Of a DNA stretch of 64,000 nucleotides, positions 23,705 through 60,978 are shown piece after piece. Positions within the stretch are counted from its first letter, which is position 1; every line of letters starts with the position of its first letter. The DNA is taken from the IMG/VR virus record IMGVR_UViG_3300048549_001527; one strand, written 5' to 3'. This DNA comes from a virus. Its lineage: Duplodnaviria > Caudoviricetes. A program made the translations under genes and the position numbers. Under the pieces are notes generated by a model, which saw only the letters and a list, made by a program, of their open reading frames with translations, had not been told where the DNA came from and made no database searches.

Positions 23705-24035
23705 AAGTTACCACTTTTCTGTTGCTAAGCAAGTGGCCAGCTCCCTGTGTTATGCCGCTAGGGCGTAACCAGATGGTGCAAAATTATCGTTTGCATTTGT
23801 AGTTTTTGGCTTAATAACGTAGGCCAACACGGTAATCTACTCTCATCTCTCTACGTCAGTCGATCCTATTTCGACCCCATCAAAGATACATTATAGAGAA
23901 AAGGAAACTTTTTTCAGCAATTCTTTTTCAGTTTACGTTCTCTCCAACGCTTAACCCATAATGTATCTATGGTGGAGTCGCTGGGTACCGCCCCCAGGTC
24001 CTGTCCGCATGTTGAATTGTATCAACGATTACTAG
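23705..24035 (-). ncRNA. ssrA: Permuted (two-piece) tmRNA
   Basis: Acceptor piece ends ...gacctgggggcggtacccagcgactccacca (CCA end at 23970). Intervening segment 23879-23969. Coding piece starts ggggtcgaa at 23878. Tag ORF 23794-23750 encodes ANDNFAPSGYALAA*. TTGACA upstream at 24068-24063. Outer ends are approximate. Confidence 0.9.
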
Positions 24036-24105
24036 ATATATATAAACTATATAAGGCCAAATGTCAACCACTCAGCCTTATATTTTATTAATTGTTACTT
24101 AAATG

Positions 24106-59395: not shown

Positions 59396-59501
59396 TTTAT
59401 TGTATTAACGGCAAACGCTTTGATTGTGTTCTTGACGCCATAGAATACAGAGATATTCTTGATGCTCATTATATTAAAGTGGTATGGAAGCAAATTAACT
59501 A

Positions 59502-59530
59502 TTGACATTCTGTTTAGAATCAGTTATATT
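59502..59530 (+). promoter_or_regulatory. sigma70-type early promoter with GAATCAG
   Basis: TTGACA-ttctgtttaGAATCAGt-TATATT. Confidence 0.8.
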
Positions 59531-59561
59531 AGTTATATCAAATGGAAAAAAGGAATCAGTT

Positions 59562-59693
59562 ATGGAACAGTTTATCACATTAGGCGGCATCATCTTTCTT
59601 AGTGGTGTTATTGGATATATTCTTGGTAACCGCTCTGGTTGGGCAAGCGCTAAAGAAATTTATGGAAAAGATAATCCATATGTAGATGTATAA
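59562..59693 (+). CDS. 43-aa single-TM protein
   Basis: MEQFITLGGIIFLSGVIGYILG...; SD aaggaa. Confidence 0.55.
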   Translation: MEQFITLGGIIFLSGVIGYILGNRSGWASAKEIYGKDNPYVDV

Positions 59694-59695
59694 GG

Positions 59696-59914
59696 ACTAC
59701 TTTACTCAGCGTCCGTGTAGAGGGAACCGGACCTAGAAGCACTTGGAAGAAATCGACTTACAAATGACGACGGTGCTATCTAACAATCGTATTAGATAGT
59801 AAATATAGCGAAACTAGTAAGTTAGATCCAATTGGTTTCAATCAAACTAGAGCGGCAATGTCAATAAGGCCGTGCGGAGAGATTGGAGATACTAGGGGCG
59901 TTGAGTAAAGTAGT
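59696..59914 (+). ncRNA. Candidate structured ncRNA of about 220 nt, family unassigned
   Basis: 19-bp closing stem (59696-59714 with 59896-59914) containing two G-U pairs; several internal hairpins. Confidence 0.65.
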
Positions 59915-59920
59915 TTATCA

Positions 59921-59997
59921 CTCGGTGTAGCTTAGCTTGGTAAAGCGCCTGGTTTGGGACCAGGAGACCGTAGGTTCAAATCCTACTTCCGAGACCA
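59921..59997 (+). tRNA. tRNA-Pro(UGG)
   Basis: Anticodon arm cctgg-tttggga-ccagg; TTCAAAT T-loop; encoded CCA; one U-U mismatch in the acceptor stem. Confidence 0.9.
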
Positions 59998-60002
59998 AAG
60001 GA

Positions 60003-60177
60003 TAATGAGGAAAACCCGACTAGCAGGTAAGAACTCATTATACTAAACCCTATATGTGGTTCGAGGCGCGTCGGACATATAGGTCGGTAAAAAGCACTGG
60101 TACCGTAAAAAAACCCAGTCGGTTGTTGCATACGTCAAATGCAAATAAGGGGAGAGGCACTGCAGAAAGCCTCTCCC
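60003..60177 (+). ncRNA. Candidate structured ncRNA with H-type pseudoknot
   Basis: Four hairpins plus pseudoknot cggta/taccg and actgg/ccagt. Confidence 0.55.
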
Positions 60178-60204
60178 TCGAAAACTATACAAGGATAAAA
60201 TATT

Positions 60205-60978
60205 ATGTTTTGGAAAAAGAATCCAGTAATTAAATTTCATATACCGGATGATATGAATATAAAGCCATATCACCCTGTACCGGCTGATCGTAGTATTCCG
60301 GAATGGTTTGTAAAGACACCAAAAGGTTGCCCAGCAGGAAAGCTACCAAAAGGCCAAGATCCAAATAAAGATTCTACAATTAAAACATGTATGCCTGTTC
60401 TTGATGCAATGACTGGAGGATATGTTGTAAAATCTCCAGTAGATATGAACATAAGAGCTTGGAAAGAAGATGGTGACGTTCATTTTGGTTGTGAATGGGC
60501 TAAAAGCGGTATGTCAACACATGATTTTATTAATTTTCATGGTACATGGCAATTAGGAAAACACTCATTATTTGATAAAACACCACCAGACGCAGTTGCT
60601 CTAAAACTTATTACTTGGTTTTGTATTGAAACACCACCTGGATATAGTATCTTGGTTAATAGCCATCACAATAACGATCATTTAAAAGATCTAGGAATAG
60701 AATTTATGACTGGTATTATAGACTCAGACAAATATACATTAGAAATTAATTTTCCATTTATATTTACAAATTTTTCTAAAGAAGGTGTATTTGTACCACA
60801 AGGTACTCCACTTTTACAATTATTTCCATTTAAAAGAGAAGCCTGGAACCATGAAATTATTAGCATGATCCCAGGCGACGAGTTTAGTAAAAAACGCCAC
60901 CGCAACATTACTGCATTACAGAGTATGTTTCGCGCTGGCTATCGTAAAAATTTTCGTTCTGTCAAAAAGTTTAAATAA
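60205..60978 (+). CDS. Conserved marine phage hypothetical protein
   Basis: KTCMPVLDAMTGGY, TPPGYS, GIIDSD and QLFPFKRE.W motifs. Confidence 0.6.
   Translation: MFWKKNPVIKFHIPDDMNIKPYHPVPADRSIPEWFVKTPKGCPAGKLPKGQDPNKDSTIKTCMPVLDAMTGGYVVKSPVDMNIRAWKEDGDVHFGCEWAKSGMSTHDFINFHGTWQLGKHSLFDKTPPDAVALKLITWFCIETPPGYSILVNSHHNNDHLKDLGIEFMTGIIDSDKYTLEINFPFIFTNFSKEGVFVPQGTPLLQLFPFKREAWNHEIISMIPGDEFSKKRHRNITALQSMFRAGYRKNFRSVKKFK

Follow-up and report, generated by a model that had tools for sequence, protein, structure and literature searches.

An RNA gene between a small ORF and tRNA-Pro

The window that we analyzed is a stretch of 64,000 nucleotides of phage DNA. It encodes T4-type replication proteins, and with cultured phages (Melnitz, rhizobiophages, and cyanophages), its UvsW-like helicase shares no more than 45% identity. 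It also contains a two-piece (permuted) alpha-type tmRNA gene at 23706-24071 on the minus strand, which Rfam recognizes at 112-120 bits. Two-piece tmRNAs of the alpha type have been described for Melnitz and for pelagimyophages (PMC9004378). Elsewhere in the window, a promoter, a small ORF, and a tRNA-Pro gene form a unit (Table 1), and the stretch just before the tRNA encodes a folded RNA of about 220 nt that is non-coding. Its family is uncatalogued and is common among T4-like phages of the ocean that have not been cultured.

A sequence-only reading of the window had proposed that a multibranched RNA lies directly before tRNA-Pro and that its ends are joined by a 19-bp helix with two G-U pairs. 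Both claims hold. The plus strand of the element folds at -71.2 kcal/mol, as compared to -47.8 ± 4.1 kcal/mol for shuffled sequences (z = -5.70; none of 200 shuffles was as good), while the z-score for the minus strand is only -3.0. The closing helix is present as described; two extra G-U pairs (59694-95 with 59915-16) can lengthen it to 21 bp, and in the minimum-energy fold of the element, the continuous end helix is 23 bp. The G+C content of the element is 0.44, as against about 0.33 for the flanks, and an ORF scan found no plus-strand ORF of 25 or more amino acids inside it. The stop codon and the tRNA adjoin the element as had been noted, with gaps of 2 nt from the stop codon to the helix and 6 nt from the helix to the tRNA.

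The fold has four arms: the closing helix P1, a small hairpin (P2), an optional arm (P3), and a domain that we call P4. Most of the inner helices that had been listed from the letters alone occur in this fold. Of these, tccaat/attgga is part of P4 and cggc/gccg is its tip, and both lie in arms that the relatives keep; gacttac/gtaagtt and ctatctaa/ttagatag sit in P3 and are the exception. The pairing gtccg/cggac is neither used nor conserved: in the relatives, GUCCG pairs with a 3' GGGGC, which extends P1, and CCGG lies unpaired in a hairpin loop.

A few observations concern the rest of the unit. A scan of the sequence found no terminator after it. If the frame of the small ORF is read from an earlier TTG start (59502-59693), the longer product has no match in Pfam or PHROG. 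A search for loci related to the downstream 257-aa ORF gave no relatives. We also considered an antisense promoter from a TTGACA on the minus strand, but none was predicted. At one related locus (L121), the identical promoter sequence runs straight into the RNA, and the 43-aa ORF is absent.

Table 1. Features of the RNA locus in the window, and sister RNAs at related loci (L numbers).
Feature	Position	Strand	Remarks
Sigma-70-type early promoter, TTGACA / 17 nt / TATATT	59502..59530	+	11/12 consensus matches; heads the unit ORF-RNA-tRNA-Pro
Small hydrophobic ORF, 43 aa	59562..59693	+	Stop TAA at 59691-59693; unannotated; between promoter and RNA
Whole RNA element	59694..59916	+	Core 59696-59914 plus two optional outer G-U pairs
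P1 + P1b, 5' arm of closing helix	59696..59714	+	Pairs with 59896-59914
P2 hairpin	59721..59734	+	Stem AGG/CCU; 8-nt loop GAACCGGA at 59724-59731
Self-complementary word CCGG in P2 loop	59727-59730	+	Unpaired in the predicted fold
P3 variable arm, rare long form (89 nt)	59743..59831	+	
P4 near-invariant 3' domain, three stacked helices	59832..59895	+	64 nt
P4 apical 12-nt loop AAUGUCAAUAAG	59857..59868	+	Tops a 5-bp stem
P1b + P1, 3' arm of closing helix	59896..59914	+	Pairs with 59696-59714
tRNA-Pro (UGG)	59921..59997	+	ARAGORN; Rfam tRNA at 65 bits
Type B RNA	L127:421-529	-	109 nt; z -6.6; tandem between type A RNA and tRNA-Pro
Type C RNA	L337:1397-1488; L340:844-935; L326:1309-1400; L007:5902-5993 (-)		92 nt; keeps AGG[GAACCGGA]CCU hairpin (CCGG)
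Type D RNA	L336:1285-1403; L019:10341-10460 (-)		About 119 nt; own palindromic hairpin

An uncatalogued family that is conserved as RNA

The relatives were found with short words from the conserved part of the element. An 18-nt word from its hairpin loop (59854-59871) matched 50 IMG/VR contigs, and a 24-nt word had more than 120 marine metagenome contigs among the matches listed. A set of 34 distinct sequences aligned cleanly, and a covariance model (R1) recovered all 34 of them as well as members with a changed loop letter. A pattern in which the loop was replaced by N12 gave mostly unrelated matches, from which R1 selected 10 new members. Altogether, we extracted 104 distinct members of 136-235 nt from IMG/VR and from marine metagenome contigs. 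The window's element matches all 152 positions of R1 (59696-59916, 138 bits, E = 2e-32), and it has the features that define the family: P1 with ACU...AGU ends, the GUCYGUG...GAGG junction, the P2 hairpin, and P4 with its 12-nt loop.

The sequence-only reading had taken the G-U pairs of the closing helix as a sign of selection at the level of RNA and had suggested a search for virome homologs and for covariation. The covariation alignment has 100 hits in 88 distinct rows. Across these distinct rows, 98.4% of the cells have standard pairs, as against 91.2% in shuffles and about 40% if the partners are slid. Compensatory changes occur in 22 of the 48 pairs (252 cells), including 11 of the 19 pairs of the closing helix, and none of 500 shuffles reached any of the five measures that we used. 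The closing helix has about 200 G-U cells in the alignment, as against only about 10 that lack pairing. Because each of those G-U cells would be an A-C mismatch on the other strand, the molecule under selection is the plus-strand RNA, which agrees with the suggestion of a discrete RNA on that strand.

The reading had also called for a comparison to Rfam, and the outcome is that the RNA is uncatalogued. In 59400-60300, the only match in Rfam 15 is the tRNA, both at the gathering thresholds and at E ≤ 10 (the models include GOLLD, ROOL, manA, HEARO, Y RNA, 6S, and ribozymes). Other family members and the sister modules in Table 1 likewise have no match in Rfam. Among 50,697 GenBank phage records, blastn found no match to the conserved core of 89 nt, and blastn of the whole region against GenBank phages gave matches to tRNA-Pro only. 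The exact 24-nt core word is present in none of 185,579 prokaryote species (one genome each). R1 is silent on the whole genomes of Melnitz and HTVC008M, so the family belongs to an uncultured clade. The core sequence was not found in the literature that we searched. A previous screen of IMG/VR reported 8,495 unnamed candidates for structured RNAs of 29-151 nt (PMC10690425). Those candidates are the same kind of object from the same source data, and part of our family may be among them; the main text of that paper describes no motif like it.

Four arms that vary in different ways

The arms differ in what they conserve. The ends of P1 (ACU...AGU) are invariant, while the middle of its sequence varies freely and yet remains paired. 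P1 is joined to P2 by a junction with the consensus GUCYGUGYRGAGG, and the A-rich linker after P2 ends in GCAC. Across the family, P2 has a stem of 2-3 bp and a loop of 8-10 nt. P3 is absent in some members; in others, it is a short hairpin, an arm of about 45 nt, or the rare long form (the window, L016, L049, and L220). Five of the six pairs at the base of P3 covary. P4 is nearly invariant, also outside of the words that we used to fish for members, and the few changes in its helices are compensatory (C-G to U-A in 12 members and A-U to G-C in 8). One word of the P4 loop is AAUGUC in 81 of the 104 members and AACGUC in 23; one AUUGUC variant was found by routes other than the loop word. The invariance of this loop is in part a matter of selection by us, because members were fished out with words from it.

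Presence in metagenomes and metatranscriptomes

Fourteen DNA runs, all from seawater metagenomes, contain most or all of the stretch, and six RNA runs contain a part. Exact matches to the interior of the element are present in contigs from three metatranscriptome runs: 59721-59892 in X15, 59720-59899 in X18, and 59732-59864 in X16. X15 and X18 are from different studies, and the upstream ORF is uncovered in both. These data are assembled contigs and speak only to presence, not to termini, strand, or amount; they may include DNA, and the parts that are uncovered are not evidence of anything. With that understood, this single-copy, conserved RNA, structured on the plus strand, is present in metatranscriptome assemblies from the ocean. 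The summed depth over P4 is up to about 290-310, which is of the same order as that of the tRNA (about 255-800), but this depth is fed by relatives. The contigs end near 59720 and 59895, which is where members of the family diverge, so these ends are likely assembly breaks and are uninformative about processing.

These contigs also bear on the idea that the RNA is a new class of self-cleaving or otherwise catalytic RNA that excises itself from a tRNA or mRNA precursor. Ribozymes of phages are known to occur next to tRNAs, the element is placed in precursors beside tRNAs, and the core of P4 is extremely conserved. But no ribozyme model in Rfam matches at E ≤ 10, the metatranscriptome contigs span the whole interior without a break, and there is no conserved unpaired junction beside an obvious cleavage point. 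We consider a ribozyme to be very unlikely.

One copy per phage in many contexts

A tRNA is the 3' neighbor, within a few nucleotides, of just 13 of the 104 members (tRNA-Pro in 8, tRNA-Thr in 2, tRNA-Trp in 2, and tRNA-Asn in 1). So release by tRNA processing, as had been proposed from the window, fails as a general route. Other members are followed by ORFs, by a terminator (4 members), or by another small RNA module, and in 21 members, the -35 box (TTGAC) of the next promoter lies within 25 nt downstream. On the other side, 12 of 103 members have a promoter with at least 10 of 12 consensus matches at 9-47 nt upstream. Four of these 12 then run into the next promoter and are stand-alone units with no ORF. 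Also, in about 20 metagenome loci (for example L125, L203, L279, and L282), the motif AAATTAGGGGTTGACA is conserved within a few nucleotides 3' of the RNA. Most likely, the next early promoter in those phages has its extended -35 region here.

With such different 3' contexts, the RNA is not the leader of one gene. The most common ORF after the RNA encodes a 68-aa phage protein that starts with MRTVHYVGM (L012:3897-4103 and 71 related loci, L286-L357); this gene lies a few genes upstream of a gene for a gp32-like ssDNA-binding protein. R1 has a match within the fetched upstream flank in 29 of these 72 loci, and about 23 of the 29 matches directly precede the 68-aa gene. If the RNA were a riboswitch or another ligand-sensing leader of its downstream gene, then the Shine-Dalgarno sequence, which P1 sequesters in about a third of the members, could be what it controls. 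But the downstream partners are unrelated (tRNAs, promoters, terminators, and different ORFs), more than half of the loci of the commonest downstream gene have no element in the fetched flank, and we see no alternative expression platform. Of all the explanations that we consider here, this is the one that we give the least credence.

The RNA is present once in each of five large phage records (5/5; 98-275 kb) and once in the window. This matters for another idea, namely that the element is selfish mobile DNA akin to a MITE, with terminal inverted repeats (ACT...AGT), which inserts between genes. Although the ACU...AGU termini are indeed invariant, and although related phages have the element at differing intergenic positions, we would not expect a single copy per record, and there are no target-site duplications. 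Furthermore, the inner parts of the "repeats" covary via G-U pairs, as in an RNA. It is highly improbable that this is a mobile element, if not quite as improbable as a riboswitch. The single copy and the varied context together are why we discount both a repeat element and a gene-specific riboswitch.

As for retrons, we considered whether this could be an msr-msd RNA, but none of the ten neighboring ORFs has a reverse transcriptase domain, and the contexts vary between members.

The closing helix and the neighboring genes

In 35 members, the 3' arm of P1 contains GGAG. A start codon lies 5-7 nt past P1 in 28 of these 35 (the other 7 have short or cut flanks), and in 29 of the 35, the upstream stop codon falls in the interval from 10 nt ahead of the 5' arm to 9 nt into it. 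Conversely, no member with a tRNA or a terminator directly 3' of it has GGAG in the 3' arm. In the window, the 3' arm reads AAGUAGU rather than GGAG because a tRNA follows. The GGAG and the following start codon thus go together, and judging from the sequences, P1 in these members masks the downstream gene's ribosome binding site and sets the upstream stop codon beside the start codon of that gene. A ribosome that terminates at the upstream stop codon would melt exactly the outer P1 pairs that mask the GGAG. Coupling of this kind via P1 would account for the presence of a folded RNA of 140-220 nt within tightly packed operons.

It could be that this is all there is, and that the element acts only in cis, for processing or for coupling. 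P1 would be an RNase III-type site, or a clamp between cistrons that is opened by the ribosome; it would separate or stabilize transcripts and would gate the downstream Shine-Dalgarno sequence, and the conserved interior would have no role beyond forming the helix or binding a processing factor. RNase III sites between cistrons have helices of at least about 20 bp, and P1 with its extension is 19-23 bp, which is about the length of a substrate for a double-strand-specific RNase. In most members, the RNA begins within a few nucleotides of the upstream stop codon, and in the members with GGAG, the Shine-Dalgarno sequence of the next ORF lies within the 3' arm. There are also precedents: the RNase III sites between the early genes of phage T7 are helices of about 20 bp in polycistronic transcripts, and cutting them can free a ribosome binding site. 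However, the T7 sites are simple hairpins with an internal loop and, unlike this RNA, have no conserved interior of 100-200 nt. A processing site has no need for a near-invariant domain of 64 nt or for a palindromic loop. Also, some members are alone between two promoters or before a terminator and have nothing to couple, and the members that are flanked by a tRNA (including the one in the window) have no Shine-Dalgarno sequence to gate. We judge it unlikely, if more plausible than the other alternatives, that the RNA is just a cis-acting element.

A self-complementary loop and a predicted dimer

The 104 members have 15 distinct variants of the P2 loop, and all 15 hold a self-complementary tetramer. 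In 11 of the 15, it is a Watson-Crick palindrome, with four different cores: CCGG, GGCC, GAUC (as UGAUCA), and GUAC. Some of these palindromes extend to 6-8 nt (CCGUACGG and CCGGCCGG). The other four loops lack a Watson-Crick core (UCGG twice, GGCU, and CUCGGG) and would pair with themselves via G-U. In the most common loops of 8 nt (GCA-GGCC-A, GAA-CCGG-A, and GAA-GUAC-A-A), the palindrome is at loop positions 4-7, that is, in one register. If the loops are shuffled so as to preserve their composition, the probability of 11 or more Watson-Crick palindromes among 15 is about 9e-4. That wobble is tolerated points to RNA-RNA pairing and not to a palindrome in the DNA. So the pattern is what we would expect from a kissing loop, in which an exposed self-complementary word is kept even as its sequence changes.

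These variants are not independent of each other. For example, L031 and L032 are identical except in P2. The variants behave like cassettes that are swapped, so the palindrome rule rests on about 5-6 independent alleles plus their wobble derivatives. Also, most of the P2 loops offer just four complementary bases, which makes for a weak kissing contact, and a miniature relative (L338) has a plain triloop hairpin in place of P2. Nevertheless, given the pattern of the loops, two copies of the RNA probably dock through P2.

This leads us to the explanation that we lean towards, which is that the family encodes a stable phage RNA that acts in trans as a homodimer. The sequences show the family, its fold and strand, the single copy, the palindrome rule, and the tie of GGAG to a start codon that follows; we infer that the RNA dimerizes, that it is processed, and that it acts in trans. 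It would be transcribed from the plus strand early in infection: in the window, together with the 43-aa ORF and tRNA-Pro from the sigma-70-type promoter, and in some relatives from a promoter of its own. P1, at 19-23 bp, would bring both ends of the RNA together and shield them. P1 would also be the probable site of excision, by RNase P on the side of the tRNA and perhaps by an RNase III-type cut within the helix. Because it sets the neighboring stop and start codons side by side, the flanking genes could stay translationally coupled. Docking of P2 to P2, in the style of the HIV-1 dimerization site, would give a symmetric homodimer that displays two copies of the invariant P4 domain to a putative partner. 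On balance we think that this combination (a P2-mediated homodimer that presents two P4 domains, with P1 as protection for the ends, as the mark for excision, and as the means by which the neighbors stay coupled) is somewhat likelier to be right than wrong.

What P4 might bind

One candidate target for P4 is early transcription. The P4 loop (AAUGUCAAUA) is perfectly complementary to TATTGACATT, which is the -35 box and its flanks in the early promoters of this phage. The loop might pair with read-through transcripts that carry -35 boxes, or it might act as a decoy for a factor that reads those boxes. Within the window, the complementarity is 10/10 at three promoter-like sites and 8/8 at 12 or more others; matching sites include 42015, 59500, and 25758 (-). 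On the other hand, we found the match post hoc, and a single-stranded loop cannot mimic the duplex DNA of a -35 box. The members with the AACGUC loop (23/104) are not accompanied by TTGACG promoters, and as the loop and the -35 box do not covary, chance remains a fair explanation for the complementarity. We are therefore quite skeptical of this target, more so than of a ribozyme though slightly less than of a mobile element. Two other comparisons were made by eye. Against a conserved segment of 16S rRNA, the P4 loop has a match of 7 nt, which is at the level of chance, and no match was seen to the sequence of tRNA-Pro.

Comparison to known RNAs

Orphan structured RNAs of phages are often located beside tRNA genes, and the position that the sequence-only reading compared to GOLLD and ROOL is indeed like theirs. 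To our knowledge, natural oligomers made only of RNA (GOLLD, ROOL, and OLE) have only just been recognized, and each of them is large and difficult to work with; ROOL is roughly 500-600 nt. GOLLD and ROOL are RNA-only homo-oligomers that are held together in part by intermolecular kissing loops (10.1101/2024.12.08.627333). Here, a dimer is predicted from sequence. The RNA has no match to GOLLD or ROOL in sequence or structure, and it is much smaller, at 136-235 nt, while GOLLD members often exceed 800 nt (10.1101/2024.12.08.627333). Also, its single palindromic loop predicts a dimer and not a cage, and it is closed by one long helix of its ends.

T4 encodes rnaC (139 nt, species 1) and rnaD (119 nt, species 2), two small RNAs that are stable and lie in tandem right beside a tRNA, much like our RNA in position. 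However, rnaC ends in a tRNA-like T arm, which our RNA lacks, and no palindromic loop was noted in either. When we ran R1 on the tRNA region of T4 with filters off, the best match had just 9 bits (E = 0.24) and was not at rnaC or rnaD, so we rejected homology. Overall, this is a new family within a known sort of object, and it is not a member of GOLLD, ROOL, or T4 rnaC/rnaD.

The proposed contact has other parallels. The dimerization site of HIV-1 is a short hairpin whose loop has a self-complementary word of 4-8 nt, mostly flanked by purines, and the word varies from one variant to another yet remains self-complementary (PMC7357161), all of which is reminiscent of P2. But the HIV-1 site dimerizes a viral genome for packaging, while here there is a small phage RNA with mostly four complementary bases and a predicted dimer. 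The prohead RNA of phage phi29 resembles our RNA in its size, in the long helix of its 5' and 3' ends, and in having loops for contacts between copies. Its loops pair hand in hand, between two different loops, to form a ring. As far as we know, T4-type phages package their DNA without a prohead-type RNA.

If the dimer is real, then this family would be a small (140-220 nt), abundant, and easily synthesized candidate for an RNA-only oligomer. Because the contact can be read from plain sequence and has been swapped several times during evolution, dimerization and its rescue by compensatory changes in the loop could be tested in a week.

Sister RNAs and an RNA island

The RNA that we have described (type A) has sisters that share its frame (a 5' ACU, a closing helix of about 19 bp, and a 3' AGU(UU)) and have different interiors (types B, C, and D in Table 1). 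The hairpin of type D is GGU[GCUAGCA]ACC in one phage and UGC[CCAUGGA]GCA in another, so the stem has been swapped along with the 6-nt palindrome. An exact word from type B matched its own locus only. Three contigs have two modules, and within each of them, the two palindromes differ, but this is a small sample.

This suggests a common RNA chassis with orthogonal dimer contacts. In its full form, the idea would be that type A is one payload on a shared ACU...AGU chassis that carries at least four kinds of RNA, and that A, C, D, and probably B each form symmetric, orthogonal homodimers through their own palindrome. This broader scheme strikes us as rather improbable, less so than a ribozyme and more so than a purely cis-acting element. 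If it is true, then the dimer of type A would present two loops that are complementary to -35 boxes, and its target might be early transcription or transcripts that result from read-through. The T4 proteins with such a role may be missing from these T4-like phages.

Whatever the RNAs do, the tRNA islands of T4-like phages from the ocean hold cassettes of related small RNAs, which are present at sea and absent from cultured phages. They point to a layer of phage RNA biology that has not been studied, in some of the most common viruses of the ocean.

Two more features of the region are worth mentioning. A second structured RNA lies right after tRNA-Pro, at 60002-60177 of the window, and ends in a GC-rich hairpin without a run of U. 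It directly precedes modules of type A, C, or D at eight related loci (L050, L283, L326, L330, and L337-L340); because it is shared in front of varied modules, we think that these pieces form an RNA island that is shuffled. Finally, the early promoters of the window (59502-59530, 43382, 48187, 58627, and others) share TTGACATT and, about 8 nt farther on, GAATCAG, which leads into the -10 box. The GAATCAG places a GANTC site, as in methylation of the CcrM type, just upstream of the -10 box.
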